Below are positions 9,583-35,363 of a stretch of DNA of 64,000 nt, one piece after another. The stretch comes from Gemmatimonadota bacterium. Its GTDB lineage: Bacteria > Gemmatimonadota > Gemmatimonadetes > Palauibacterales > Palauibacteraceae. The position numbers and the translations under genes are program-made. The notes beneath the pieces were generated by a model. The model did no database searches. It saw nothing but the letters and a program-made list of their open reading frames with translations, and was not told the origin of the DNA. The number at the start of each line of letters is the position of its first letter. Within the stretch, counting starts at the first letter, position 1. Location: contig DATHRZ010000012.1 in the NCBI GenBank assembly GCA_035464655.1, positions 4,225-68,224 on the forward strand, written 5' to 3'.

Positions 9583-10527
9583 TCAGTCCTCAGCGAACAG
9601 CTTCTCCAGGTACCGATCGGCGTCGAACGGCTCGAGATCGGCCGCCGTCTCGCCGGTGCCGACCCAGCGCACCGGTAGACCCAGCGCGCGAGCCACGGCG
9701 ACGGCGGTCCCCGCCCGCGCCGAGCTGTCGAACTTCGCGAGCACGAGTCCGTCGAGCGCGAGTGCCTCGCCGAACTGCCGGGCCTGGGCGACCACGTTCT
9801 GGCCCGCCGTCGCGTCGACGACCAGCAGCCGCTCGTGCGGGGTGCCGGGGACGACCCGTTCGAGCACCCGATCGATCTTCCGCAGCTCGGCCATCAGGCC
9901 GCCCTGCGTGTGCAGCCGGCCCGCCGTGTCGACGATCAGCAGATCGACGCCACGCGCCTTCGCCGCCTCGGCGGCATCCCAGGCCACCGCCGCCGGGTCA
10001 CCGCCCGGCTTGCCGCCGACGAACGCCGCGCCGAGGCGATCGGCCCACTGACGAAGCTGCTCCTGGGCTCCGCTGCGGAACGTGTCGGTCGCCGCGAGCA
10101 GGGGCGTCTCACCCGCCTCGATCGCGCGATGGGCGAGACGGGCCGCCGTGGTCGTCTTTCCGGTTCCGTTGACGCCGACGAGCAGCACGACGCGCGGCGC
10201 ACCTCCGGGGGACGCCGGCGCTTCGTCCTCCTCTATTCCGTTCGCTCCGCGCTTCAGCATGGCCCGGATCTCGTCGCCCAGCAGGACCCGCAAGTCGTTC
10301 TCCGTCTTCACCGTTCCGCGACGGGCCGCGCTCTCGAGCGCTTCGACCAGTTCGAGGGTCGCGTCTATGCCGAAGTCGGCTTCGAGCAGCACCCGTTCGA
10401 GGTTCTCGATCGCGTCCTCGTCGACGCCTTTTACCAGCACCGACACGTCGGTGAGCGAGATGTCGACGATTTTCTGCCACAGCGACTTCTTCCGCCCCTC
10501 CGACGCCGGGCGGAACCGGTCCGTCAT
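9583..10527 (-). CDS. ftsY: signal recognition particle receptor FtsY
   Basis: NG domain GVNGTGKTTT, DTAGR, LAKFD; 314 aa. Confidence 0.9.
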   Translation of the reverse strand: MTDRFRPASEGRKKSLWQKIVDISLTDVSVLVKGVDEDAIENLERVLLEADFGIDATLELVEALESAARRGTVKTENDLRVLLGDEIRAMLKRGANGIEEDEAPASPGGAPRVVLLVGVNGTGKTTTAARLAHRAIEAGETPLLAATDTFRSGAQEQLRQWADRLGAAFVGGKPGGDPAAVAWDAAEAAKARGVDLLIVDTAGRLHTQGGLMAELRKIDRVLERVVPGTPHERLLVVDATAGQNVVAQARQFGEALALDGLVLAKFDSSARAGTAVAVARALGLPVRWVGTGETAADLEPFDADRYLEKLFAED

Positions 10528-10558: not shown

Positions 10559-12493
10559 TCAGCGCAGGCCGATCCTGCGCCGCCAGTACCACTCTCCGCA
10601 CAACATTAGGGCCGCGAGCACGAAGGGCCACATCGCCCGTCCGCCCGTGGCGGCGGCACCCGCGGATCCGACCGTCGTGCCCACCAGCTCCCGCCCGACC
10701 GGTCGGGCCGGGAGCTCGCGTTCGGCGCCCTCGACCTCGAACGGCCGACCCGTGCGGAACGCCTCGCCGGCCGCGATGCCTTCGGCCACGAAACTGTGGG
10801 AGCCCGCCGGGGCCGGCGGTCCGGCGAGGGAGGCCCCGGGCGCCGCCGCCGTGTCTTCCCAGATCACGGTTCCGGCCGAATCCTGGATCGCGATCCGCAG
10901 GTCGCTCACCCCCGACGCCACTCTCCAGCTCACGGGTTCTCCGGCCGCCAGGCGTCTTCGAGCCAGCTCGACGGGACGGCGTTCAGGCGCCTCGAGCAGC
11001 CAGCTTGCGAGGCCGGCGAACAGCGAGCGATAGGCCTGCCGCGCCTCCCCGCCGCGCGACGCCCAGCGCCACGTGCCTTCGGCCGCGACGACCACGCGCC
11101 GCCGGTCCCCCGAGCGTGCGGCACCGATCGGTGCCCGTCCGGCGCCGGAGCGATTCCGCCGGAGCTCCAGGGGCGCCCATTCGTGCCCCTGCAGGTCGAA
11201 CAGGCGACTGACGGGGGGAAGCGCGGGATGATCGAGACCGCCGAGGAAGCCGGCGATCGGGCTCGGCGGCAGCGGACCTCCCGGATACCATTCTCCCGCT
11301 TGCGGCCCCCCGACGCGAAGCCCGGAGCCCGGCACGACGCCCGCGCCCCGGGCGAACCAGAGCACGCGCGGATGGCGGGCGGCCAGCGCGTCGAGCCACG
11401 CCGGTCCGGCCCCCGGCGTCCCCTGTACGACCAGCAACTCGGCCCGTGCGGCGTCGCGCCGGACGCGGTCGGCGTCACCCGTCGGCACGCGCTCCGTACC
11501 GGATCGAATCCAGCGATCGGGCCCCACTCTCAGCCACGCGCGCGCGCCCCCGGCGGTGGACCGCGCCAGCACGGGCAGAAGGTAGTGCGGCTCCCAGTCG
11601 GGATCGGCCGCCACTATCACGGCGCCGGCGGCCGTCGGTACGATCTCGATCCACACGCGATGGCGTGGACCGGGGCCGAGGGGATCCGCATCGGGTTCGA
11701 GCCGGATGTCGTACGCCCGCCAGGCGTCGCCCCCCCCTTCGAGCGCCACGACGCCTACCGGCACGCGGCGGGTTCGACCGGGCGTCGGCGCCTCGAAGCC
11801 GACGATCGACCGGGCCCCGTCGGGGCCCGTCACCGAGAGCGACGCGGAATCGGCAAGCCTCGTGTCGCCGATCCCTGCAACTTCGACGACGAGGCGGATC
11901 GTATCGCCGGCCTCGGCGGCGGCCGGCGCGTCGACGCCGCGGATGGCGAGCCTGGCCGGACGCTCCGCCACCCGCACTTCGCGGACGGTGAGGCCGAGTC
12001 TGCGCGCTACCGGGCGGGCCTCCTCGCGGTCGTCGAGCTCTCCGTCGGTGAGGAGCACGACACGGTCGGCACCGGCCGCGCGCGCCGCTTCGAGAGCCGG
12101 CACGACGCGACTCGCCACATCCGCCGGGCCGGCGCCGTGGTCTTCGGCCGCGGCGCGTGCCGAATCGCCGAACCACACCGTCGTTTCCCGTTCGATGTCA
12201 CGGGCAAGGAGCGCCGTGGAGTCGGCCCGTGACATGCCGCCCGGGGAAGCCGGCAGGGACATGCTGAGGGATCGATCGACGAGAAGGGCGGTGGTCGGTC
12301 GGTCGCCGCCGGCACCGGAGAACGGGGAGGGAAGCCACCAGCCGGCGAGCAGCAGGAAGAGCGCGCATCCGCGCAGTATGGCAGGGCCGGCGCGGCCGGG
12401 AACCGGCTCTTCGAGCCTGGCGTACGCCCACCAGCTCACCGCGGCGCCCACGAGCGCCGCGAGTACGACGGGAATCAGGCCGCCCGCTGCCAC
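10559..12493 (-). CDS. membrane protein with von Willebrand factor A domain (BatA-like N-terminus)
   Basis: Two N-terminal TM helices, MIDAS-like D-R-S-L-S, VVLLTDGE, C-terminal TM; 644 aa. Confidence 0.55.
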   Translation of the reverse strand: MAAGGLIPVVLAALVGAAVSWWAYARLEEPVPGRAGPAILRGCALFLLLAGWWLPSPFSGAGGDRPTTALLVDRSLSMSLPASPGGMSRADSTALLARDIERETTVWFGDSARAAAEDHGAGPADVASRVVPALEAARAAGADRVVLLTDGELDDREEARPVARRLGLTVREVRVAERPARLAIRGVDAPAAAEAGDTIRLVVEVAGIGDTRLADSASLSVTGPDGARSIVGFEAPTPGRTRRVPVGVVALEGGGDAWRAYDIRLEPDADPLGPGPRHRVWIEIVPTAAGAVIVAADPDWEPHYLLPVLARSTAGGARAWLRVGPDRWIRSGTERVPTGDADRVRRDAARAELLVVQGTPGAGPAWLDALAARHPRVLWFARGAGVVPGSGLRVGGPQAGEWYPGGPLPPSPIAGFLGGLDHPALPPVSRLFDLQGHEWAPLELRRNRSGAGRAPIGAARSGDRRRVVVAAEGTWRWASRGGEARQAYRSLFAGLASWLLEAPERRPVELARRRLAAGEPVSWRVASGVSDLRIAIQDSAGTVIWEDTAAAPGASLAGPPAPAGSHSFVAEGIAAGEAFRTGRPFEVEGAERELPARPVGRELVGTTVGSAGAAATGGRAMWPFVLAALMLCGEWYWRRRIGLR

Positions 12494-12506: not shown

Positions 12507-13769
12507 TCAGTCGGCTACCCGGGCGATCACCGGCTCCTCGATCGGTATGGCCGGGAGGTCGAACCCGTCGAGCAAGCCGAGCGCCCGGTCCCTCGAAGCG
12601 TTGAACTCCGCCATGTATTCCTGCTCGAGCGCGGGCGCGGACGGCAGGTCGATGCTCGCCGGATTCCGGTGTCGACCGCCCTGCAGGAACTCGTAGTGCA
12701 GGTGCGCCCCGGTCGCGAGACCCGTCGCACCGACCCGCCCGATTACCTCGCCCTGGTCCACGGGCTGCCCCACCCGAACACCGATCGAGCTGAGGTGGGC
12801 GTAACGCGTCGTGATCCCCTTCGCGTGCCGCACCTCGACCATGCGTCCGTAACCGCCCCACGTACCGGCGCGCGTGACTGTGCCTGCCGCGGTCGCCTTT
12901 ACCGGGGTACCGTAGGGCGCCCCGTAGTCGGTACCGAGGTGCGCCCGGCGGACCTTGAGCACGGGATGATAGCGTCGCGACGAGAAGCTGCTCGTGATTC
13001 GGAAGTCGACCGGGTAGCGCAGGAACGACCCCCGCATCGCATCGCCGTTGAAGTCGAAGTACTCCCGGTTCCCGTCGGGGCGGGTGAACGGGATCGCCTG
13101 CAGGCGCTTGCCGCGGTTCATCAGCTCGACCACGAGGAACTTCCGCTCGCGCACGCTGCCGTCGGGCCGGCGCTCGCGCTCAACGGCCACGCGAAACGCG
13201 TCGCCCCGCCGAATATCCCGCGTGAAGTCGATCTTCCACATGAACACGTCTGCCAGGTGGAAGACGTACTCCTTGAACTCGTTCTCGCCCATGCGATCGA
13301 CGTCGCCCGACAGGCTCGCGAACCACAGGCTCGATTCGATCAGGCCGGCAAAGCGGATCGTGTCGATCACCACCGGGACCTCGTGCACGCGGGCCGCCCA
13401 CCCCTCGTCGCCGGCCGACAGTTCGACGAGGGAATCCGGGTTGACGAGCAGATGCACCGTCTCGGGCGGCTGCTCGGGGCGGCCAGAGAACCGGGCCACC
13501 ATGCCGGCCTGCAGGCGACGCGGGCTCTTCACCTCGCGCACGACCTGCGTGAAGGCGTAGGCTGCGGGCGGGTCGAACCCGTTGTCGACCAGCAGCTCGG
13601 CCAGGGTTTCACCGCTGTCGAGAGTATCGTAGACCGTGACGGGCGGCGGGGGCACGGGGACGACCACTTGCCTTACCGGCGGGGTTTCCGCGGCTCCACC
13701 CAGCGATGACGCGGCCAGCCAGAACAGGCCCAGGGCCCCGGCCCCGGTCGCCAGCACCCTGCGCATCAT
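12507..13769 (-). CDS. M23 family metallopeptidase (murein endopeptidase-like)
   Basis: Signal peptide from MMRRVLATGAGALGLFWLAA; HLGTDY and HLHYE zinc motifs of peptidase M23. Confidence 0.75.
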   Translation of the reverse strand: MMRRVLATGAGALGLFWLAASSLGGAAETPPVRQVVVPVPPPPVTVYDTLDSGETLAELLVDNGFDPPAAYAFTQVVREVKSPRRLQAGMVARFSGRPEQPPETVHLLVNPDSLVELSAGDEGWAARVHEVPVVIDTIRFAGLIESSLWFASLSGDVDRMGENEFKEYVFHLADVFMWKIDFTRDIRRGDAFRVAVERERRPDGSVRERKFLVVELMNRGKRLQAIPFTRPDGNREYFDFNGDAMRGSFLRYPVDFRITSSFSSRRYHPVLKVRRAHLGTDYGAPYGTPVKATAAGTVTRAGTWGGYGRMVEVRHAKGITTRYAHLSSIGVRVGQPVDQGEVIGRVGATGLATGAHLHYEFLQGGRHRNPASIDLPSAPALEQEYMAEFNASRDRALGLLDGFDLPAIPIEEPVIARVAD

Positions 13770-13856
13770 GAACGTTCCGCCGTCCCGTTCCGTTTCGATC
13801 ACCTCGTCCTGTCTCCTCGGTCTCGCGGGTCTCGCCCGTCGGTCGGACCGCGCCCG

Positions 13857-24168: not shown

Positions 24169-25553
24169 CAGGCGGCCTCGCCGTTCGCCCTGGCGACCAG
24201 CGATTCGACGACACGTTCGAGCCGTTCGCCGCGCGACGCCTTGACGAGCACGACCTCGCCGGGCGCCGCCCCCGACAGGAGCTCCTCGACCACCGCCTCC
24301 ACGGTGTCCGCGGCGGAGACGTACACGGCATCCTCGGCCATCGACGTCTCGGACACGGCGTCACCGAACGCCGCGCGAAATTCCCCCAGGGGAAACAGGC
24401 GCCCGAACCCCGCCTCGACGAGGCGCTTCGCGATCGCGCGATGCGCCGCCGGAGCGTCGAGCCCGAGCTCGAGCATCGAACCCACGACGGCACTGCGAGG
24501 CCGGCCCGGAAACGACGTTTCGCAGAACCGGATCGCGGCTTCGAACGACTCGGGGTTCGCGTTGTAGCAGTCCGCGACGATCGTCAGCTCGCCGGCGCGC
24601 ACGACGGCGCCGCGCATCCCTACCGGTCGATAGCGTGACAGGCCCCTCGCGGTTGCCTCGCCCGAAGCGCCGACCGCGGTGGCCAGCGCCGCGGCGATGA
24701 CGGCGTCACGAAGATGGTGCTCGCCGCCCACCTGCAGGGCGTAGGTAACGCCACCCTGGTCGAAGCGCACACTCTCGGCGCCGGTCTCGAAGCGCTCGGG
24801 CCGGAAGTCGGAGGTCTCCTCGAGGCCCGCCACGATCACGTCGTCCCGGATCCGACGGGCGGCCGCCGGCAACATCGGCGGCACGTCGCCGACCACGACC
24901 CGACCCGCCGGCTGTGCGCCCCGCACCAGGGACAGTTTCTCGCGCAGGATACCGTCGACGTCGCCGAACCCCTCGAGGTGGGCCTGCCCGACCGTGGTCA
25001 CGACGGCATCGTCGGGTTCGGCGATCGCGGTAAGGCGCGAGATTTCGCCGGGGGCGTTGCTGCCCATTTCGAGCACCCAGTAGTCGGCGCCCGGCGTGGC
25101 CCTCAGGATCGTCAGCGGCAGCCCGGTGAGGCTGTTGAGGTTGCCCGGGGTGGCCCAGGTGTCGCCGTGCTCGGCGAGTGCGAGGGCGAGCATTTCCTTC
25201 ACCGTCGTCTTCCCCGAGCTGCCGGTCACGGCGGTGACCCGCGCTCCGCTCCGGCGGCGCGCGAACCGCGCCAGGTCGCCCAGCGCCCGGAGCGTGTCGG
25301 GAACGGCGAACAGTTCGAGGCCCTCGACGTCGAAGGAACGCCCGGCGGGAACGATCGCCCCTGCGGCCCCGCGTCGTGCCGCCTGCCCCACGAAGTCGGC
25401 ACCGTCGACCCGTTCCCCCGGCAGGGCGACGAACAGCCCGCCGCGCTCCACCTCGCGCGAATCGATGGCCACCGACGAGTAGTGCCGGGCCGAGTCGCCC
25501 CGTGACAGGCCGAGGGCCCGACGCACCTCGTGGCTCTCGAAGCGAGCGCTCAT
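24168..25553 (-). CDS. murF: UDP-MurNAc-tripeptide--D-alanyl-D-alanine ligase
   Basis: GSSGKTTVKE P-loop; Mur ligase middle and C-terminal domains. Confidence 0.85.
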   Translation of the reverse strand: MSARFESHEVRRALGLSRGDSARHYSSVAIDSREVERGGLFVALPGERVDGADFVGQAARRGAAGAIVPAGRSFDVEGLELFAVPDTLRALGDLARFARRRSGARVTAVTGSSGKTTVKEMLALALAEHGDTWATPGNLNSLTGLPLTILRATPGADYWVLEMGSNAPGEISRLTAIAEPDDAVVTTVGQAHLEGFGDVDGILREKLSLVRGAQPAGRVVVGDVPPMLPAAARRIRDDVIVAGLEETSDFRPERFETGAESVRFDQGGVTYALQVGGEHHLRDAVIAAALATAVGASGEATARGLSRYRPVGMRGAVVRAGELTIVADCYNANPESFEAAIRFCETSFPGRPRSAVVGSMLELGLDAPAAHRAIAKRLVEAGFGRLFPLGEFRAAFGDAVSETSMAEDAVYVSAADTVEAVVEELLSGAAPGEVVLVKASRGERLERVVESLVARANGEAA

Positions 25554-27091
25554 CCGCCGCCCCCGATCAGCGAACTCACGACGGCCGCTTCATCGAACGG
25601 CAGCTTCTCGCCGCCCACGTCCTGGTAGGTCTCGTGCCCCTTCCCCGCGAGGAGCACGACGTCCCCCGCCTCGGCCCCGGCGAGCGCGACTTCGATCGCC
25701 TCCGCCCGGTCGTCGATCACCTCGGCGGAGCCGGCCGGAAGCGACGACAGGATGTCGCCCATGATCCGCTCGAGCGGCTCGGTACGCGGGTTGTCGGTCG
25801 TGACGATCACGCGATCGGCGCCCGCGACTGCCGCCTCCCCCATCAGCGGCCGCTTTCCGCGATCTCGATCGCCTCCGCAGCCGAACACCACGGTCAGCCG
25901 CCCCGGGGCCAGGCGGCGCAAGGCGGCGAGCGCACGTGTCATCCCGTCCGGCGTGTGCGCGTAGTCGCGCACGACGAGGGGTCCGGGGGGGCCGGCCAGG
26001 GTCTCCATGCGTCCGGGCACCTGGGGGGCGGTCGCCAGCCGGTCCGCCAGGGCGTCGAGCGAGACGCCCACGGCGTAAGCGGTCGCCGCGGCGCCGAGAG
26101 CGTTGGATACGTTGAAGTCGCCGAGCAGCGGGAGCCGAACGTCGACGGCACCACCGGGCGTGGCGAGACGCCAGGAGCTGCCGTCCGCGCCGTGCCGCAC
26201 CCCTTCGGCCCGCACGTCGGCTTTCTCGTGAAGTCCGAACCGGACGCAGCGAATCGGCTCGAACTCGGCCGTCCTCCAGGCGGGGTCGTCGGCGTTCACA
26301 ATCGCGACGCCTTCGTCCTCCAGGTGATCGAGAAGCCGCAGCTTCGCGGCGAGATACGACGCCATGTCGGGATGGTAATCGAGGTGCTCGCGGCTCAGAT
26401 TCGTGAACAGTGCGGCGGCGAACCTCACCGCGTCGACGCGCCGCTGGTCGAGCGCGTGCGACGAGACCTCCATGGTGAGCCACTCGGCGCCCGCCGAACG
26501 AGCCTCCGCGAGGTCGTCGTTGAGCTGAAGCGGCCCGGGCGTCGTCATCCGCCCCCGCGGCGAGCGCGAGCCGTCGGGCAGCCACAGGCCGAGGGTCCCG
26601 AGCGCCGCCGCGGGACCCGCCGCCCCCAGCAGGTGCCGAAGAAGGAGCGTCGTCGTCGTCTTGCCGTTGGTGCCGGTGACACCCACGACGCGGAGGAGGG
26701 TCGCCGGATCTCCGGCTGCGAGGGCCGCGAGGTGAGCCGTCGCCACGCGCGACTCCGGCACCCGGAGCAGGGGAATCTCCGTCTCAATCTCACGCTCCAC
26801 CACGGCCCCCGCGGCGCCCGCCGCGGCGGCGGCGGCCACGAACGCGTGTCCGTCCACCAGGGTTCCGTCGATCGCGCAGAACAGGTCGCCACGGCCGACA
26901 CGCCGCGAATCCACGCGCAGCGCCGCGAAGCCCCCGGGAGGGCTCCCGATCCAGGCGAACGGAATCCCGCGTGCCCGGAGTCGCGCTTCGACGCTGTCTG
27001 TGGTGATCAATGGATCCGCACTTCCCCCATATCGGTTTGCACCTCGCCGGGCGGACCCGGGCCTCGCCGTCGCCAGCGCAGCCGGGTCCAT
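25550..27091 (-). CDS. murE: UDP-MurNAc-L-Ala-D-Glu--2,6-diaminopimelate ligase
   Basis: GVTGTNGKTTTT; DNPR motif (TTDNPRTEP) suggesting DAP specificity; exact start uncertain. Confidence 0.85.
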   Translation of the reverse strand: MDPAALATARPGSARRGANRYGGSADPLITTDSVEARLRARGIPFAWIGSPPGGFAALRVDSRRVGRGDLFCAIDGTLVDGHAFVAAAAAAGAAGAVVEREIETEIPLLRVPESRVATAHLAALAAGDPATLLRVVGVTGTNGKTTTTLLLRHLLGAAGPAAALGTLGLWLPDGSRSPRGRMTTPGPLQLNDDLAEARSAGAEWLTMEVSSHALDQRRVDAVRFAAALFTNLSREHLDYHPDMASYLAAKLRLLDHLEDEGVAIVNADDPAWRTAEFEPIRCVRFGLHEKADVRAEGVRHGADGSSWRLATPGGAVDVRLPLLGDFNVSNALGAAATAYAVGVSLDALADRLATAPQVPGRMETLAGPPGPLVVRDYAHTPDGMTRALAALRRLAPGRLTVVFGCGGDRDRGKRPLMGEAAVAGADRVIVTTDNPRTEPLERIMGDILSSLPAGSAEVIDDRAEAIEVALAGAEAGDVVLLAGKGHETYQDVGGEKLPFDEAAVVSSLIGGGG

Positions 27092-27095
27092 CGGC

Positions 27096-29120
27096 TCAGC
27101 GCAGGAGCACGAGGGCCCCCGGCACGATACGCGTGCCCGGAGCCGGCTCGGTACGCGCGACGCGACCCGATGCCTGATTCTCTACATGCAGCCCGAGCTC
27201 GTGCAGGCGAGCCACCGCCGCGCGAATACCGAGTCCCGAAAGGTCCGGAAGAACGACCTCTCCGCTCTCCGTGGCCGACGGCCTCAACCTCTCCACTTCA
27301 TCGCCCGGGGTCGGGTTCGTGGCGACGAGCCGAAACGGCTGTCCGTCGTCGGACCGCGAGGCACCGTCGTCGCGGGGCACACGCGCATCCCAGTCGTAGT
27401 GCCGTGCTGCCGGAGCCGCCACGCGCCCGGTTACGAGCCCCGATTCGGCGGCCGACAGGATCGCCTGTACGACCGTCCGACTCACCGGCGCCGCCGCGCC
27501 GCCTCCGTAGATCGTCGACTTCGGGTCGGTCAGCTTGGCGAGGACGACGAGCTGCGGATCGTCGGCCGGGACGTACCCCACGAACGACGCCACGTAGCGC
27601 CCCGAGGCGTAGCCGCCGTCCTCCGAGATCCGCGACGTACCGGTCTTTCCGGCGATGTCGATCGTCCTGAGCGCCGCTTCGTCCCCCGTACCCGAGCGAA
27701 CGACGCCCGCCAGGACACCTGTGATCTCTCTCGCCACATCGGCGGCCACGACCGTGCGCAACACGCGCGGCCGGTGCTCGAACAGCCGACGTCCGCTGGC
27801 GTCGCGCACGCTCTTGATCAGGGTCGGACGCAGGAGGATTCCGTCGTTGGCGAGGGCGCCGTACGCCGCCACGAGTTGCATCGACGTCACGGTCATTTCG
27901 TACCCGAAAGCCAGCGACTGGGGGCTGAGCGCCGTCCAGCGTTCTGGCCGGTGGAGCACGCCCGATGCCTCCGATGCCATCTCGATGCCCGTCGGGGTGC
28001 CGAAGCCGAAGTCGCGCAGGTAGGCGTACTGGAGCCCGTGGGAGCCGATGCGGTCGGCCAGCTTGGCGGCGCCGATGTTGCTCGAATACCGGATCACTTC
28101 CTCGACCGTCAGCGAGTCGTACTCGTGAACGTCGGTGATCATTCGATACGGGGTCTCGTACGTACCGCCTTCGACATCGATCGTGTCGTCGAGGCCCGCG
28201 ATGCCCTCCTCCAGCAGGGTGGCGAGCAGGAACGGCTTCGTGGTCGAACCCGGCTCGTAGGGATCGGTGAAAGCCGGAATCCGCTGTTGCGCACCTGCCG
28301 CATAGCTGGCGACCGCGAGCACTTCTCCGGTTCGCGGGTCGGCGAGGATCACGTCGCCCCCGCTCGCCCCGGTCGCGGCCAGGGCGTTTTCGAGCGCCCC
28401 CTCGGCGATCTCCTGCAGCTCCGCATCGATCGTCAGATAGACGTCGCGTCCCGGCTGCGGCGCGACCGAACCCGCGTGCCGCAGCGGATACGTTGCTCCG
28501 TGCGCGTCGCGACGGCTCGTCATCTCGCCCGGTACACCGGTCAGGAGACTGTCGAGCACGAGCTCCAGGCCCGACTGTCCCCTTCCCTTCGCGTCGAGAG
28601 CTCCCAGCAGACCCGCCGCCAGGCGACCTTCCGGATAGTTTCGCGCCGGCACGGGCTGGAAATGAAGCCCGCGTCTCACCGACTGCACGAGGCGCTCGCG
28701 CGTGCGCCCGTCGACGCGTCCGAGCGATACCCAGCCGCTCTCGGCGCGGCGCAGGCGCTCGAGGGCGCCGTGCCCGGGATCCAGCACGGCCTGGATGGCC
28801 GCGAGCGCCGCCTGTTCGTCGACGACTTCAGCCGGGGCATAGAACGCGGCGTGGTGTTCACGAGATATCGCGAGCGGGCGTCCATTGCGGTCGAACAATC
28901 CACCGCGCGCCGCCGGCAATTCACGGACCTCGGTCGTCTGCGAGATGGCCCTTGCACTCCACTGGTCACCCTGGAGAACCTGAAGCTGGAAGGCACGGGC
29001 GGTCACGAGCAGACCGGAGGCAAGCGCCGCCACGGACAGCAACCCGCAGCGGAATGCATGTGTGCGGGACAGCGCCCTTCCCTTCTTGCTCCTGTTGCGC
29101 CCGACTCGCTTCTTGCTCAT
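27096..29120 (-). CDS. ftsI: peptidoglycan D,D-transpeptidase FtsI (class B PBP) with C-terminal PASTA domain
   Basis: Dimerisation domain; S-T-T-K active-site motif; C-terminal approximately 60-aa PASTA-like segment (VVLPDLSGLGIRAAVARLHELGLHV...). Confidence 0.85.
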   Translation of the reverse strand: MSKKRVGRNRSKKGRALSRTHAFRCGLLSVAALASGLLVTARAFQLQVLQGDQWSARAISQTTEVRELPAARGGLFDRNGRPLAISREHHAAFYAPAEVVDEQAALAAIQAVLDPGHGALERLRRAESGWVSLGRVDGRTRERLVQSVRRGLHFQPVPARNYPEGRLAAGLLGALDAKGRGQSGLELVLDSLLTGVPGEMTSRRDAHGATYPLRHAGSVAPQPGRDVYLTIDAELQEIAEGALENALAATGASGGDVILADPRTGEVLAVASYAAGAQQRIPAFTDPYEPGSTTKPFLLATLLEEGIAGLDDTIDVEGGTYETPYRMITDVHEYDSLTVEEVIRYSSNIGAAKLADRIGSHGLQYAYLRDFGFGTPTGIEMASEASGVLHRPERWTALSPQSLAFGYEMTVTSMQLVAAYGALANDGILLRPTLIKSVRDASGRRLFEHRPRVLRTVVAADVAREITGVLAGVVRSGTGDEAALRTIDIAGKTGTSRISEDGGYASGRYVASFVGYVPADDPQLVVLAKLTDPKSTIYGGGAAAPVSRTVVQAILSAAESGLVTGRVAAPAARHYDWDARVPRDDGASRSDDGQPFRLVATNPTPGDEVERLRPSATESGEVVLPDLSGLGIRAAVARLHELGLHVENQASGRVARTEPAPGTRIVPGALVLLR

Positions 29121-29500
29121 CGCGTCCCACTGTCGGTGTTCAGGTTCACGCCTCCCACGATCACGACCTCGTCGTCCGTCGCCTGACGGAAGCCCCGCTC
29201 CTCGACGATTCGCGCGATCCGCTCGCGCGAAGTCAGCGACTCCACTCGCACGACTTCGTCGACGAGCGTTTCCTCGAGCAGCATCGTTTCGCGCCGCAGG
29301 TCCGCGAGCTGCTCGGCCAGCCGGGTACCTTCCGCCGTTCGGCGCACCGAGACCATCAGGCCGACCGGTATGGTCAGCGCGGCGAGCACCATGACGAAAC
29401 GCCGGCGGATCGCCCCCGGCCGCGCCGAGCGTCGGGCGCTCCGTCGCTTCTTCCCACCCCGACTACGCTTCTTCTTCCCCTTCGGGCTCCGGCTGCTCAT
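29117..29500 (-). CDS. ftsL: cell division protein FtsL-like
   Basis: Basic N-tail, single TM, short coiled coil; ATGA overlaps with rsmH and ftsI; canonical position in the cluster. Confidence 0.55.
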   Translation of the reverse strand: MSSRSPKGKKKRSRGGKKRRSARRSARPGAIRRRFVMVLAALTIPVGLMVSVRRTAEGTRLAEQLADLRRETMLLEETLVDEVVRVESLTSRERIARIVEERGFRQATDDEVVIVGGVNLNTDSGTR

Positions 29501-30435
29501 CCCCGCTCCCACCCGCGCAGGCGCGCGCTGCGGGCTCGCGGGTTCGCCTCGATCTCCGCCGCGCTCGGACGCAGCGGCTTCTTCGTCAGCACGCGCCCGA
29601 GTGCATGTCCCCTGCACCGGCAGATCGGCAACTCGGGCGGGCATACGCAGGCGCGGCTCCAGTCGCGAAACGCATGCTTCACGACCCGGTCCTCGAGCGA
29701 GTGATAGGCGATCACCGCGAAGCGTCCGCCCGGCGCGAGCAGGTCGCGCAACACAGGAAGTGTGTCCTCGAGGGCCTCGAGTTCGTCGTTCACGGCGATG
29801 CGCAGGGCCTGGAACAGGCGGGCCTTGGTGGCGGCGGTCAGACCGCCGCCGAGCGCGACCGTGCAGGCGGCGACGAACTCGTCGGATGTGACGAACGGTT
29901 CCGTCTTCCGGCGCTTGACGATCTCGCGCGCCAGGGGGCGCCACCGGCGCTCCTCGCCGTACTCCCTGAAGATCCTGCCGAGCTCGTCCTCGGTCGCCTC
30001 GTTTAGAATGAAGGCAGCGGTCCTCCTCCCGCCGGCTGTCCCGCCCATCCGCATGTCCAACGGTGTGCTCCGACGGAAGGAGAAACCGCGTGCCTGTTCA
30101 TCCAGTTGATGCGACGATACGCCCAGATCGAGCAAAGCTCCCCGCACGGGCATCGTCTCCGTTTCCGACGCCACGAGCCTCGCGGCGTCACGAAAGTCTC
30201 CGTTCACCAGCGTCGTCCGGTCCGCCCAGGGCGCCAGCCTTCGGCCCGCCGCGGCAAGCGCTTCGGGGTCCCGGTCGATGCCGACCAACCGGGCCTCGGG
30301 GTTCGCTCGCAGCAGCCGAGCCGCGTGGCCGCCCCCTCCCAGCGTCCCGTCTATCCATACGCCCCGTCCCTCGGGACGGAGCAAGTCGATCACTTCATCG
30401 GCGAGAACGGGCTCATGCGTGTACTCCGCGTGCAT
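29497..30435 (-). CDS. rsmH: 16S rRNA (cytosine1402-N4)-methyltransferase
   Basis: SAM-binding DGTLGGGGH; MraW family; 312 aa. Confidence 0.9.
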   Translation of the reverse strand: MHAEYTHEPVLADEVIDLLRPEGRGVWIDGTLGGGGHAARLLRANPEARLVGIDRDPEALAAAGRRLAPWADRTTLVNGDFRDAARLVASETETMPVRGALLDLGVSSHQLDEQARGFSFRRSTPLDMRMGGTAGGRRTAAFILNEATEDELGRIFREYGEERRWRPLAREIVKRRKTEPFVTSDEFVAACTVALGGGLTAATKARLFQALRIAVNDELEALEDTLPVLRDLLAPGGRFAVIAYHSLEDRVVKHAFRDWSRACVCPPELPICRCRGHALGRVLTKKPLRPSAAEIEANPRARSARLRGWERG

Positions 30436-30458
30436 CGCGAGCCTCGCCTCCTCGCCGA

Positions 30459-30890
30459 TCAGGCGAACAGCCGTCCGGCCACGTCACCCAGGTCACCCGG
30501 TGCGTCCTCGACGATCTCTTCGAACTTCGCCGGGCTCCAGATCTCGATCTTGTCGAGCGCGCCAATCAGCAGCGCCTCGCCGCCCAGCCCGATCGCCGAG
30601 CGCAGCCGCTCGGAGATCAGGATGCGACCCTGCTTGTCGGGAGTGACCTCCTGAGCCCTGGACGTGAGGGCGAGGACCTCGAGCCTGCGCTGAGGAGCCC
30701 GGCGCAGGTGATCGCGCATCCGCTTCTCGACGTCTTCCCACGCCTCGCTCGGGTAGAGCGTCAGCGCGTCGGGGTGCACCTGGATGAGGACGAACGACGC
30801 ACCGTCCGAGCCTTTTCGAAAGGCTGCCGGAAGCGTGACGCGCCCCTTTTCGTCCACCTGATTGAGGTGGCTCCCCAGGTATCCGCCCAC
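30459..30890 (-). CDS. mraZ: transcriptional regulator MraZ
   Basis: Two MraZ half-domains, each with a DxKGR-type motif (VDEKGRVTLP and TPDKQGRILI); start moved to GTG at 30890 (143 aa) because the ORF-track start would overlap its own operator. Confidence 0.85.
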   Translation of the reverse strand: MGGYLGSHLNQVDEKGRVTLPAAFRKGSDGASFVLIQVHPDALTLYPSEAWEDVEKRMRDHLRRAPQRRLEVLALTSRAQEVTPDKQGRILISERLRSAIGLGGEALLIGALDKIEIWSPAKFEEIVEDAPGDLGDVAGRLFA

Positions 30891-30924
30891 TGTGCTCCAT
30901 TGACGTCGCGGGTTGGAAGGCTGT

Positions 30925-30958
30925 GAGAAATCCCCACTGTTTCCCACTTTTCCCCACT
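30925..30958 (-). promoter_or_regulatory. MraZ operator: three direct GTGGG[GA] hexamers at 10-bp spacing
   Basis: Plus strand CCCACT at 30933-30938, 30943-30948 and 30953-30958, exactly 10 bp apart. In the minus sense it reads AGTGGGGAAA AGTGGGAAAC AGTGGGGATT, 35-67 nt upstream of the mraZ start. Confidence 0.6.
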
Positions 30959-31033
30959 GCGCCCCATTCTACCGACCCCATCCCGACGACGCAACCCCAG
31001 GGCCCCACCACGTCCCGTGGACAGTCCGGACAC

Positions 31034-31070
31034 GAAAAAAGCCCGGCGGAACACTGGGTTTCGCCGGGCC
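31034..31070 (-). terminator. Rho-independent terminator downstream of the TPR gene
   Basis: Stem GCCCGGCG/CGCCGGGC (31041-31048 / 31062-31069) followed on the minus strand by TTTTTT (31035-31040). Confidence 0.5.
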
Positions 31071-31130
31071 TTCAGGGTGTCTGGAGCGGAGCCGGGCCGT
31101 TGTCGGCCCGTACCGCGACTCAGCCGCGCA

Positions 31131-32948
31131 TCAGCGACACGCCGGCTTGTTGAGGATCGCTTCCTGCCGGTAGATGTAGATGTCGGTGTTCTCTCTCACC
31201 TGAGCCTGGCTCTGCCGCTGATAATTGCCCGCCTGGTTCAGATGCGGGAGCACCTGCTTGAATCGACTGAGAGCCCGACGCGCCGGCTGGCAAGCCTCTG
31301 CCTGCATATTCGCGTCGTCGATCTCCGCGCCCCACTGGAAGTAGCTGAACGCCGCGAAGAAGCGGAGCTGCTCTTCGGTCCCCTGTTCATCGACGAACTC
31401 GAGCGCCGTCTCGAACATCGCGGCGGCACGGTCGTATTCGCCGTTCTGGAAGTAGTCGTTGTAGCCGCGACTCAGCAGGGTCTGCGCCACCATATCCGTG
31501 TCCTCGCCGCCTGCCACCGCGGCGCGGAGATCCTGCATCGCCGCGTCTTCGTCGCCCGCCGTCAGCTTGAAGAAGCCGCGCTTCGTGAGGCCGCGGGGGA
31601 GGTCGGGATCGAGTCGCAACGCCTCGTCCATGGCCGCGATCGCCCCCTCGTAATCGCCGGCCCGGGCACGGACGTCGGCCCGCAGCGAACGGAGACTCGC
31701 GTCCTCCGGCAACTGCTCCTCGGCACGCTCGGCGAAGCGGGTCGCCTCGTCCAGGTCGCCGAGCTGCAGATAGGCGGCTACGACGTTCTTGAGGATTTGC
31801 GGATTCGTATCGTCGCCTCGAAGCTCGAGCACCTTCTCGTAGGCCTCGACGGCCGCGCGGATCGCGCCTTCGTTGGCGACGGACCCTTCGGCGGCCTGCC
31901 CGGCCGAATCGTCGCCACCGCCGCCCGTCGTCTCCTCACCGCCCACACCGGTTCCGGTACCGCTCATCGCGACGCTGGCCGTGGTCCCCTTGTTCAACTG
32001 CACGTTCCCGAGGAACTCCCACACGGCCGCGTTGGTGGAATCCCGCGCGATCCCCTCCTCGAGAAGCGTGATCGCGCCGTCGAACTCTCCGGCCTGTACG
32101 AGATCGAAGGCGATCTGCATGCGCACGCTGGCGTCGTCGGGATTGAAGCCGAGGTATTCGCGATAGAACTGCATCGCCCGCTCGGTGTTGCCGAGCTGTG
32201 TCTCGGTGTAGGCGAGGGAGTTCAGGGCGTCGACGTGCGCCGGGTTCTCGGCCACCACTTCGTCGAGATTCTCCTTCGCGATCTCCCAGTTTTCCATGCC
32301 CATGTGCACGCGGCCCATCAGGTACCGTACCGACATGCCGTTCGGGTTGTATTCGGCCGCCTCTTCGCAATTGCGCAGCGCGTCGTCGTACTCTTCGCTC
32401 CCGAGGTAGTCGGCACAGAACAGCAAGGCCCGCTGGTACTCCACCTGGCCCTCGACGGCGTCCATGATGTGGTCGGCGGCCTCCTGCTCGCCGCGTCCAC
32501 CGTCGTCCTGGACGACGAACTCAGGAATCGGCGTGGCGTCTCCGGTGCGCGCGTCGATGAACGAGACGTTGAACGCATTGCCGCCCGAAGCGCGTGACAC
32601 GGTGCCCGACAGGAGGAGATCTGCGTCGAGGCGCCCCGCGAGCTGACGCCACTGGACGACGCCGAGGTCGTCCTCGTCGAGCTTCAGACGCCGGAGCTCG
32701 TCACGGACCGCGTCCTCCTCGATGGCGGTCAGCGTGGCGGCATCCCCGAGCCGGTCACGCACTCTCTCGGCCACCTTCCGACCGAAATTGCGCTTGACGC
32801 CGTTATCTTCGGCGATCGGAACCACGAGCACCCTGGCGCGGCCGCTCTGCTGGGCCTCCGCCGGCGCCGGCGACGCCAGCAGCATCGTAGCCAGCAGCGT
32901 CCCGGCCGTAAGCAATCCGCCACCAATGGCTTTCAGTTGCATCATCAA
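31131..32948 (-). CDS. secreted tetratricopeptide-repeat protein
   Basis: Signal peptide (AEAQ); multiple TPR-like A/Y/L-rich helical repeats; 605 aa. Confidence 0.7.
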   Translation of the reverse strand: MMMQLKAIGGGLLTAGTLLATMLLASPAPAEAQQSGRARVLVVPIAEDNGVKRNFGRKVAERVRDRLGDAATLTAIEEDAVRDELRRLKLDEDDLGVVQWRQLAGRLDADLLLSGTVSRASGGNAFNVSFIDARTGDATPIPEFVVQDDGGRGEQEAADHIMDAVEGQVEYQRALLFCADYLGSEEYDDALRNCEEAAEYNPNGMSVRYLMGRVHMGMENWEIAKENLDEVVAENPAHVDALNSLAYTETQLGNTERAMQFYREYLGFNPDDASVRMQIAFDLVQAGEFDGAITLLEEGIARDSTNAAVWEFLGNVQLNKGTTASVAMSGTGTGVGGEETTGGGGDDSAGQAAEGSVANEGAIRAAVEAYEKVLELRGDDTNPQILKNVVAAYLQLGDLDEATRFAERAEEQLPEDASLRSLRADVRARAGDYEGAIAAMDEALRLDPDLPRGLTKRGFFKLTAGDEDAAMQDLRAAVAGGEDTDMVAQTLLSRGYNDYFQNGEYDRAAAMFETALEFVDEQGTEEQLRFFAAFSYFQWGAEIDDANMQAEACQPARRALSRFKQVLPHLNQAGNYQRQSQAQVRENTDIYIYRQEAILNKPACR

Positions 32949-33082: not shown

Positions 33083-33157
33083 TGGGCGAAGCAGGATTCG
33101 AACCTGCGACCTCCTGCTTGTAAGGCAGGCGCTCTGGACCAGCTGAGCTATTCGCCC
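33083..33157 (-). tRNA. tRNA-Val (anticodon UAC)
   Basis: Cloverleaf folded by hand: acceptor GGGCGAA/UUCGCCC, D-stem GCUC/GAGC, anticodon stem CCUGC/GCAGG with loop CUUACAA, T-arm GCAGG-UUCGAAU-CCUGC, discriminator A; CCA not encoded. Confidence 0.85.
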
Positions 33158-33405: not shown

Positions 33406-34356
33406 TTAGGATGCGCTCGGGGGGTCGTCAACGTTCGTTAGTTCCAGGGCGGCCGCCTCGCGGCGCTCTCGCTCGCGCATCTCCGACAGGCGCCGCCTGT
33501 CGTGGCGTATCCTGGCGATGCCGAGCCCGATGATCAGGAAGGTCACGGCGAGCCAGACGAAGCCGGTCCGGCTGAGCAGGTACAGCCAGCCGTACCGGTC
33601 GAGTACTCGCTCGCGCCACCGGCGTTCGAACTGATCGGCGGTGATCCCGTACACGCGGCGCAGGGCCGCGTCGAAACGATCGCCGTCGCGCAGCGACGCG
33701 AACAGCGCTTCGAGACCCCGATCGCCGCCCAGCGAGCGCAGGGCGTCGACGGCCGTATACGACAGTATGTAAGCGGTCTGCGGCTCGATGCCCGAACGGA
33801 AGCGTCGGTCGAGGTCCGAGAGAATCGACTGCCCTCCTCGCATCAGGGTGAACTGAAGGCGCCAGCCTTCCCGCCAATCCCACGTCCCGCTCGCCATCTG
33901 GGCATAGCCTTCGTGCATCCAGCGCGGCACGTTCCCGCCGGTCGCGGCATGCAGGGCGACGTGCGCCGCCTCGTGCCGGTACACGGCGAGGAGTCGGTCG
34001 AAGTTGCGCTGCGAGCCACTCACCCGGAGCGCGAGGCGCCGTCGCGCCGGGTCGGCCACGCCGGCCACCCAGGGTTCGGATCGGCCGAGGCCGACGGAGT
34101 CGAGCGTCGACAGGTCGCGCGCGAACCAGATCACGACGCGGCGCCCCGCCAGCACGGAGTCGGGGATGCCCGGCATCGACGCCCAGACTTCGAGGTTGTC
34201 GGTCACGCTACGCGCGAGTTCCTCCAGTCCGGGGTCGGCCCGCACCTCGAGCTCGGGCCCCTGCACCGGGGCCTCCGGCCCCGTCACCGTGGCATCGCCC
34301 GGGTCCGTCGGCTGGCCGCAAGCGGTGATCGCCACGACGGCGATCCGAAGCAGCAC
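33406..34356 (-). CDS. putative zinc metallopeptidase lipoprotein (HExxH) with C-terminal TM anchor
   Basis: GTG start; lipobox ...AITAC; H-E-A-A-H motif; C-terminal hydrophobic helix. Confidence 0.55.
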   Translation of the reverse strand: MLLRIAVVAITACGQPTDPGDATVTGPEAPVQGPELEVRADPGLEELARSVTDNLEVWASMPGIPDSVLAGRRVVIWFARDLSTLDSVGLGRSEPWVAGVADPARRRLALRVSGSQRNFDRLLAVYRHEAAHVALHAATGGNVPRWMHEGYAQMASGTWDWREGWRLQFTLMRGGQSILSDLDRRFRSGIEPQTAYILSYTAVDALRSLGGDRGLEALFASLRDGDRFDAALRRVYGITADQFERRWRERVLDRYGWLYLLSRTGFVWLAVTFLIIGLGIARIRHDRRRLSEMRERERREAAALELTNVDDPPSAS

Positions 34357-34361
34357 CGATC

Positions 34362-35363
34362 TCAGGATGCCGAATCGCGCGCCCACGCCAGCGCTCCGGC
34401 AAGAGGCTCCGGGAGTTCGGACGTGAAGGTCAGTTCGTCGCCCGTGGCGGGATGTACGAACGACAGCCGCGCCGCGTGCAGGAACAGGCGGCCCACCCGG
34501 CGGGCGAATCGTGCCGCCCACTGACCGCCAGCGCCGGTCATGCCGCGCTCCCATCCGGCGCCGTACACCGGGTCGCCCACTACCGGGTGGCCCGTGTCGG
34601 CCAGGTGGACACGAATTTGATGGGTGCGCCCCGTCTCGAGGCGAATCGCCAGCAGATCGGCGGCCGGCCAGCGTTCGAGCCAGCGTACGTGCGTGACGGC
34701 TCGGCGGCCGTCCTCGACGACCGCCATGCGCTTGCGGTCGTTCGGGTGCCGGGCGATCGGGCGATCGATCGTCGAGCGCTCGGGCTCGAACCGGCCCCAT
34801 ACGGCCGCCAGGTAGCCACGGCCGACCTCTCGCCGGGCGAGCGCCGCCGACAGCGCCTGATGGGCTTCCTCGCGCCGGGCGACGATCATAAGGCCGCTCG
34901 TGTCGCGGTCGAGGCGATGCACGATTCCGGGACGGCGGGGCAGACCGATCGGAGAAAGATCGCCGTAGCGGCCGAGCAGCGCGTTTACGACCGTTCCGTC
35001 GGGATGACCGGGCGCCGGGTGGACGACCATGCCGTGGGGCTTATCGACGACCACGAGGTGCTCGTCCTCGTACACGACGTCGATCGGCAGGTCCTGGGCC
35101 GCCAGCTCGATCGGCGGAGGTGGTGGGATCTCGACACGGATCTCGTCGCCCGCCCTCGGACGATAGCTCTTTTGCACCGGCTCCTCGTTGACCGTCACTT
35201 CGCCCGCGGCGATCAGCGCGGCGATTCGCGATCGGCTGAGCCGCGTGCGCTCCGCGAGCAGGGCGTCGAGACGCTCCTCCGCGTCGGCTTCGATCCGCAG
35301 TCGCACCGTCTCGGCGCCGGGCTCAGTCGGGCGGTCGGGACGCCTCGACGGCTCGCGCCTCAC
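34362..35363 (-). CDS. rluD: 23S rRNA pseudouridine synthase, RluA family (RluD-like)
   Basis: N-terminal S4-like domain; catalytic HRLDRDTSG; 333 aa. Confidence 0.85.
   Translation of the reverse strand: MRREPSRRPDRPTEPGAETVRLRIEADAEERLDALLAERTRLSRSRIAALIAAGEVTVNEEPVQKSYRPRAGDEIRVEIPPPPPIELAAQDLPIDVVYEDEHLVVVDKPHGMVVHPAPGHPDGTVVNALLGRYGDLSPIGLPRRPGIVHRLDRDTSGLMIVARREEAHQALSAALARREVGRGYLAAVWGRFEPERSTIDRPIARHPNDRKRMAVVEDGRRAVTHVRWLERWPAADLLAIRLETGRTHQIRVHLADTGHPVVGDPVYGAGWERGMTGAGGQWAARFARRVGRLFLHAARLSFVHPATGDELTFTSELPEPLAGALAWARDSAS

Follow-up and report, generated by a model that had tools for sequence, protein, structure and literature searches.

The operators closest to the one described here are those of the mra promoters, which are stated to carry three MraZ boxes in most bacteria (PMC12957436). 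In E. coli, three TGGGN/GTGGG direct repeats in Pmra (mraZ1p) are bound by MraZ (Eraso et al. 2014, as cited in PMC7761207), and the K-12 genome (NC_000913.3) reads TTGACA, 17 nt, GTAAAC, tcctttc, AGTGGGAAAT TGTGGGGCAA AGTGGGAATA and 15 nt to the ATG. In B. subtilis, three GTGG[A/T]G boxes separated by 4-nt spacers are required for MraZ-dependent repression of the mra operon, and residues R15 and R86 of MraZ are required as well (bioRxiv 10.1101/2022.02.09.479790). Operators with four boxes have also been described. In the cryo-EM structure of the M. genitalium complex, four GTG(G/T) boxes separated by 6-nt spacers are each occupied by one of four MraZ subunits; K13, R15 and R86 read the bases and are essential for binding, and transcription starts inside box 1 with the -10 hexamer just upstream (PMC12957436). 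The PmraBc promoter of B. cenocepacia has four 7-nt repeats with 3-nt spacers, which come after the -10 hexamer and overlap the point where transcription starts, 'as in E. coli' (PMC7761207). A literature search found no papers linking MraZ operators to Gemmatimonadota.

Here we analyse a 64-kb stretch of DNA (the window) from a Gemmatimonadota bacterium, in which a phased repeat array precedes mraZ. The nearest MraZ proteins and contigs are those of uncultured Gemmatimonadota, and the lineage is known from metagenomes only. The repeats, the identity of the mraZ gene, its DNA-reading residues, the match to E. coli and an association with mraZ in every one of 50 loci all support the proposal of an earlier sequence-only reading that the array is an MraZ operator, and we consider it very probable that it serves as the MraZ operator for the mra (dcw) promoter of this bacterium.

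A phased repeat array upstream of mraZ

On the minus strand the region reads TAGAATGGGGCGC AGTGGGGAAA AGTGGGAAAC AGTGGGGATT TCTCAC, with three AGTGGG units that start at 30958, 30948 and 30938 in exact 10-bp phasing (Table 1). The sequence-only reading had listed CCCACT at plus-strand positions 30933, 30943 and 30953, as direct reading of the sequence bears out, and had put the repeats 35-67 nt upstream of mraZ, in agreement with an array that begins 68 nt and ends 38 nt before the GTG at 30890. Without mismatches, AGTGGG-N4-AGTGGG-N4-AGTGGG occurs a single time in the window and gave no matches in 100 dinucleotide-preserving shuffles (chance expectation 0); TGGG-N6-TGGG-N6-TGGG was likewise absent from the shuffles. 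The pair GTGGG-N5-GTGGG is found within the window only at the array, compared with 0.2 expected. The lone pentamer GTGGG is not enriched (128 found in the window, 149 expected), and the signal therefore resides in the phasing. Tandem Repeats Finder independently called a period-10 array at 30931..30959. A search for further MraZ sites found no second double or triple box elsewhere in the 64-kb window.

One register upstream of the three perfect boxes stands a candidate fourth (box 1), which has ATGG in place of GTGG and keeps the 10-bp register with boxes 2-4.

Table 1. Features of the mraZ upstream region, with window coordinates
Feature	Position	Strand	Basis or remark
G-run GGGG	30998..30995	minus	conserved; precedes the -35-like hexamer
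-35-like hexamer TTGCGT	30994..30989	minus	conservation; TTGCG[T/C] in relatives
-10-like hexamer TAGAAT	30971..30966	minus	conservation; TA[G/C/A][A/G/T]AT in relatives
Box 1, AATGGGGCGC, degenerate MraZ box candidate	30968..30959	minus	1 mismatch to register
Box 2, AGTGGGGAAA	30958..30949	minus	sequence read; invariant in 20/20 Gemmatimonadota upstream regions
Box 3, AGTGGGAAAC	30948..30939	minus	includes GTG 30947..30945
Box 4, AGTGGGGATT	30938..30929	minus	GTGGGGA invariant in 20/20
Leader segment ATTTCTCAC	30931..30923	minus	conserved in most relatives
Leader segment CCTTCCA	30920..30914	minus	conserved in most relatives
Shine-Dalgarno-like GGAG	30895..30898	minus	4 nt ahead of GTG 30890
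mraZ CDS, 143 aa, start GTG 30890	30459..30890	minus	MraZ models, homologue lengths
Intrinsic terminator of upstream TPR gene, GC-rich hairpin and U-run	31070..31035	minus	folding

The mraZ gene and its start codon

The gene behind the array is identified as mraZ by Pfam PF02381 (1.7e-24) and NCBIfam TIGR00242. Its product contains two DXXXR motifs, D13-E-K15-G-R17 and D85-K-Q-G-R89, and residues K15, R17 and R89 align with K13, R15 and R86 of M. genitalium MraZ (chain 9qlr_J). The longest open reading frame opens at the GTG of the middle perfect box (box 3), which would put the start of the gene within its own operator; the sequence-only reading had for this reason moved the start from 30947 to the GTG at 30890. 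The later start is upheld by model alignment, homologue length, a homologous start codon in relatives and length changes in the leader. In the 143-aa form, residue 1 falls on position 2 of the NF001476 model and residue 5 on position 3 of the 144-position TIGR00242 model, and MraZ homologues are mostly 142-144 aa long. The equivalent codon in relatives is GTG, ATG (L001) or TTG (L007, L033), with GGAG, GGGG or GAGG at the Shine-Dalgarno place. Moreover, the stretch between the boxes and the start codon differs in length by 1-2 nt among relatives and is therefore not coding. Ten public calls for close MraZ homologues (P0011, P0014, P0020, P0045, P0063, P0065, P0071, P0076, P0084 and P0085) are 160-175 aa long, probably through the same over-extension into the operator as in the open reading frame track.

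A conserved promoter signature and an upstream terminator

Twenty distinct Gemmatimonadota upstream regions all contain GGGGTTGCG unchanged, and in each of them a spacer of exactly 17 nt, variable in sequence, comes next. The -10-like hexamer, which conserves its T, its A and the final AT, always stands 17 nt past TTGCG. Since this hexamer spacing is constant in every sequence while the spacer itself varies, we take the pair for a sigma-70-type promoter signature. The -35-like TTGCGT agrees with the TTGACA consensus at 3/6 positions, which explains why a generic sigma-70 scan of 30400..31400 returned no promoter reaching threshold; given the weak -35 hexamer and the missed call, the promoter assignment rests on conservation and on the geometry of the E. 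coli promoter. In the window, 7 nt separate the -10 hexamer from the first AGTGGG. Because a C-A step is conserved 7-8 nt past the hexamer, the transcription start is predicted at about A30958, where the first perfect box begins, giving a 68-nt leader. With the promoter in this position, the three perfect boxes would span about +1 to +30 of the transcript. The description of the operator as lying upstream of mraZ thus holds with respect to the gene; more exactly, it would sit on and just downstream of the predicted promoter, from -10 to about +30.

A predicted intrinsic terminator bounds this region on its far side. The fold of 31085..31025 has an energy of -34.9 kcal/mol (z = -6.1), which no shuffle equals, and a CCCGGCG...CGCCGGGC-TTTTT element recurs upstream in most related loci, with L004, L007 and L051 differing. 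A consensus terminator scan of 30400..31400 did not pick up the hairpin because its stem has an internal loop. The predicted terminator leaves ~140 nt within which the mraZ promoter must sit, and sets that promoter apart as its own transcription unit. The gene that it would terminate encodes a TPR protein of 605 aa (31131..32948, minus strand) and ends at 31131. In most close relatives the TPR gene and terminator are likewise found in synteny with mraZ.

Conservation of the boxes within and beyond Gemmatimonadota

The footprint set comprised 22 Gemmatimonadota loci, from genomes and metagenome contigs, whose MraZ proteins are 62-94% identical; these gave 20 distinct upstream regions including that of the window, which were anchored without gaps. 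The resulting consensus is GGGGTTGCG, 17 variable nt and TAnAAT-GGGG..CAGTGGGGAAAAGTGGGAaaCaGTGGGGATTTCTCaC..CCttcCa. Within it, GGGGTTGCG, TAnAAT and CAGTGGGGAAAAGTGGGA..C.GTGGGGA show little or no variation, the inter-box spacer bases GAAAA and AAAC are conserved as well, and free variation is seen in the 17-nt promoter spacer and in the distal leader. Across the 20 regions, boxes and promoter hexamers are thus kept while the flanking intergenic DNA diverges.

The association of the boxes with mraZ is strict and extends across phyla. Each of 50 loci drawn from Gemmatimonadota, Acidimicrobiia, Firmicutes (Allofournierella), one Ectothiorhodospiraceae genome and E. coli K-12 has GTGG-N6-GTGG-N6-GTGG on the sense strand within the 200 nt that precede mraZ, and both strands of the 189 kb from these loci contain no other copy. 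Phased boxes also occur in four more Gemmatimonadota loci besides the 50.

Comparison with described MraZ operators

A close counterpart is found in E. coli. Both the E. coli operator and the predicted one of the window have three AGTGGG-type boxes with a 10-bp period, on the sense strand directly upstream of mraZ at the head of the dcw cluster, and in both the boxes begin 7 nt past the -10 hexamer, a predicted one in the case of the window; by a direct count from the two sequences, the E. coli K-12 operator and the three perfect boxes of the window are identical at 22/30 positions. They differ in that the window shows an additional candidate box, the in-register ATGGGG joined to the -10 hexamer, 38 nt rather than 15 nt between the last box and the start codon, and TTGCGT as its -35 hexamer with a conserved G-run ahead. 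The hexamer plus 4-nt spacer architecture that had been proposed for the array agrees with the K-12 sequence read here and with the description of the B. subtilis operator. The latter is also similar in the uniqueness of its triple repeat, which occurs once in the B. subtilis genome as the array does in the window, and differs at the fifth base, which is G in the window (GTGGGG/GTGGGA) and A or T in B. subtilis. The B. subtilis-type GTGGAG does occur as box 3 in two relatives of the window (L050, L052).

The M. genitalium operator shares with the window the GTG(G/T) core, the 10-bp period (a 4-nt core and a 6-nt spacer), a -10 hexamer immediately upstream and a transcription start in or at the first boxes, the last two as predictions in the case of the window. 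It has four boxes, one per subunit, and the window likewise has four if box 1 is counted. Its base-reading Lys/Arg/Arg residues are retained in the window as K15, R17 and R89, although the two proteins have low identity (phmmer E-value 1.5e-06) and the window genome, at 69% G+C, contrasts with the very A+T-rich genome of M. genitalium. In contrast to M. genitalium, box 1 of the window is degenerate and overlaps the -10 hexamer itself. The same difference separates the window from B. cenocepacia, where the first of the four repeats is not of this kind; with box 1 counted, the two are alike in the four repeats and the 10-bp period, and also in the location of the repeats past the -10 hexamer and over the transcription start, again as predicted for the window.

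Proposed operation of the promoter and alternative readings

From this geometry we propose the following scheme. The promoter TTGCGT-N17-TAGAAT (30994..30966) would fire at about A30958, with the three perfect AGTGGG[G/A] boxes at approximately +1 to +30, a weaker AATGGGG box over the -10 hexamer, and all boxes facing the same side of the helix. The MraZ protein, whose coding sequence begins 68 nt past the predicted start, would bind cooperatively as an oligomer that places one subunit on each box, and each subunit would read the GTGG core in the major groove through K15, R17 and R89. MraZ occupying -10 to +30 would exclude or trap RNA polymerase, blocking either its binding or its escape, and would in this way repress its own synthesis together with that of the promoter-proximal dcw genes, forming a negative feedback loop.

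Two readings of box 1 bear on the number of boxes. Box 1 overlaps the last three bases of the -10 hexamer TAGAAT, and its ATGGGG is kept in 18 of the 20 upstream regions of the clade, L002 and L004 being the exceptions; the clade with box 1 has the TPR gene upstream of mraZ. Box 1 may be a weak fourth MraZ box or, alternatively, the end of the -10 hexamer with a GGG discriminator behind it, two readings that are about equal and can coexist. A GGG(A) discriminator contacts sigma region 1.2 (Haugen 2006, Feklistov 2006). To the reading in which box 1 serves this contact only, leaving a three-box operator as in E. coli and B. subtilis, we assign slightly less than an even chance. The AT of ATGGGG belongs to the -10 hexamer, and the first G of GTGG is missing. 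Moreover, the more distant Gemmatimonadota L049, L051 and L055 lack box 1 and have three boxes, the first 7 nt past the -10 hexamer; the Firmicutes loci and E. coli also have three boxes, and in none of these is there a G-run past the -10. A fourth box is favoured by the exact 10-bp register of the unit with the other three, by the documented four-box operators of M. genitalium and B. cenocepacia (PMC12957436, PMC7761207), and by L053 and L056, in which ATGG replaces GTGG in box 3, so that ATGG is tolerated as a box variant in the clade. We regard as unlikely a more elaborate arrangement. In it, box 1 of a four-box operator would be joined to the -10 hexamer, with the ATGGGG core opening on the last AT of TAGAAT, MraZ and the sigma factor would compete for identical bases, and ATTTCTCAC and CCTTCCA in the leader would provide a further layer of control, of a kind not described for any mra promoter, which would act on the RNA or by way of another factor.

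Other G-rich elements of the region do not add to the count. The sequence-only reading had noted additional CCCCA-rich elements at 30961-31015, and part of this proved conserved, namely box 1 with the -10 hexamer and the G-run before the -35 hexamer. As further boxes these elements did not stand: the G-runs of the promoter spacer are unconserved and were ruled out, and the G-run before the -35 hexamer, although conserved, is 33 bp from box 1 and out of register. An inverted fifth box (GTGAG, plus strand, 30923..30927) was also ruled out, the relatives having GCGAG. Separately, a TGGGG-N5-TGGGC pair with 10-bp spacing (TGGAG for TGGGG in the window, 30886..30899, minus strand) spans the Shine-Dalgarno region and the start codon, and lies likewise at -9/+1 of mraZ in L003, L005, L006 and L007; its distance to box 4 ranges from 26 to 47 nt. 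This pair could be a weak MraZ half-site, or equally just the ribosome-binding site and conserved Met-Gly-Gly codons.

The boxes might also act through something other than MraZ binding. Four G-tracts make up a canonical quadruplex motif, GGGG-N6-GGGG-N6-GGG-N7-GGGG (GGGGCGCAGTGGGGAAAAGTGGGAAACAGTGGGG, 30965..30932, minus strand; G4Hunter mean 1.66), a type of motif that occurs only 6 times in the window, and a quadruplex in the non-template DNA or the 5' leader RNA could tune dcw expression instead of or alongside MraZ. A quadruplex in the mraZ promoter region of S. aureus is reported to form in vitro and to affect expression (PMC11796246). Of 25 Gemmatimonadota loci, 20 have a quadruplex motif overlapping the boxes, and so does E. 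coli. Such a motif is, however, the automatic outcome of four TGGG boxes placed 10 bp apart, a quadruplex with 6-7 nt loops is weak, and it needs no conservation of the spacers, whose bases GAAAA and AAAC are nevertheless conserved. The motif is lost in 5 of the 25 Gemmatimonadota loci (L002, L050, L051, L052 and L055), in 3/3 Firmicutes and in 12/15 Acidimicrobiia, whereas GTGG phasing is kept in all 45 loci scored. Because the phasing persists where the motif is lost, we reject the quadruplex as a selected feature and regard it as a by-product of the boxes; a regulatory role for it is improbable.

Control at the RNA level, which we rate as more doubtful still, would have the G-rich boxes of the leader pair with AUUUCUCAC or CCUUCCA, or CCUUCCA pair with the start-codon region, to affect the stability or translation of mraZ mRNA. 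The pyrimidine-rich leader segments ATTTCTCAC and CCTTCCA do have complements in the G-rich boxes and around the start codon, and MraZ binding does not account for their conservation. In the minimum-free-energy fold, CUCAC is the partner of box 4, UUCCA that of box 3 and CCCGC that of box 2, and RNAalifold pairs CCUUCCA with UGGGCGG at the start codon. Yet the leader folds no better than shuffled sequence (z = 0.10; 103 of 200 shuffles fold at least as well), the covariation term is 0.02 with 0 compensatory pairs, and five relatives (L003, L004, L007, L025 and L033) are without one or both segments and keep the boxes, as do other phyla, where the same boxes occur without the pyrimidine segments. 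An Rfam search of the window matched only the tRNA and no leader RNA family. Winged-helix response regulators, too, typically have tandem direct repeats of 10 bp as their sites, so the array would suit another tandem-repeat-binding regulator with ~10-bp spacing, for example of OmpR/PhoB type, and a link between MtrA and mraZ is reported in Actinobacteria (PMC9602371). Against this stand the confinement of the triple GTGG array to mraZ in the 50 loci and the match of the sequence to operators that MraZ has been shown experimentally to bind (PMC12957436, bioRxiv 10.1101/2022.02.09.479790, PMC7761207); chance origin as a short tandem repeat is excluded by the shuffles and by conservation. We consider either of these two origins, another regulator or chance, highly improbable.

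Read as an MraZ operator, the array belongs to a type of site that is already well known; it is useful for annotation, of the gene start and the promoter, and is neither surprising nor the opening of a new question. It fixes the annotated start of mraZ at 30890 in place of 30947, and it locates, to within a few bases, the predicted dcw promoter in a Gemmatimonadota lineage that is uncultured. Judged by sequence, it would extend the GTGG, 10-bp-period MraZ operator with E. coli promoter geometry to another phylum, and the shared geometry fits an ancient and very stable autoregulatory circuit heading the cell-division cluster.

The dcw cluster and its neighbourhood

Profile identities of the genes bear out the earlier description of mraZ as the head of a co-directional 15-gene dcw cluster, which on the minus strand runs mraZ, rsmH, ftsL, ftsI, murE, murF, mraY, murD, ftsW, murG, murC, murB, ftsQ, ftsA and ftsZ. 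The ftsQ product is an FtsQ-type POTRA protein, and ftsL is assigned by position and composition only. The 127-aa FtsL-like protein had no Pfam or NCBIfam match; at the equivalent place in L049 lies a gene with weak FtsL/DivIC matches. The start codon (ATG) of the FtsL-like gene and the stop codon of rsmH overlap as ATGA (29497..29500, minus strand), which suggests translational coupling of the two genes. In the segment 7479..17203 (minus strand), no ddl gene was found between murB and ftsQ.

Past ftsZ lie genes for an M23 peptidase (12507..13802), a 644-aa open reading frame with only a faint GAF match (10559..12493), ftsY (9583..10527) and recG (7479..9566). Antisense open reading frames of 700-760 aa opposite murE and ftsI (25376..29186, plus strand) and elsewhere are probably not genes but an artefact that comes with 69% G+C. 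On the other side of the cluster, a 464-aa open reading frame (33406..34800, minus strand) has a weak match to HExxH flagellinolysin-type metalloproteases (E-value 6.9e-09, far below the family cut-off); it adjoins a tRNA-Val gene (anticodon TAC; 33083..33157, minus strand), which lies upstream of the TPR gene.
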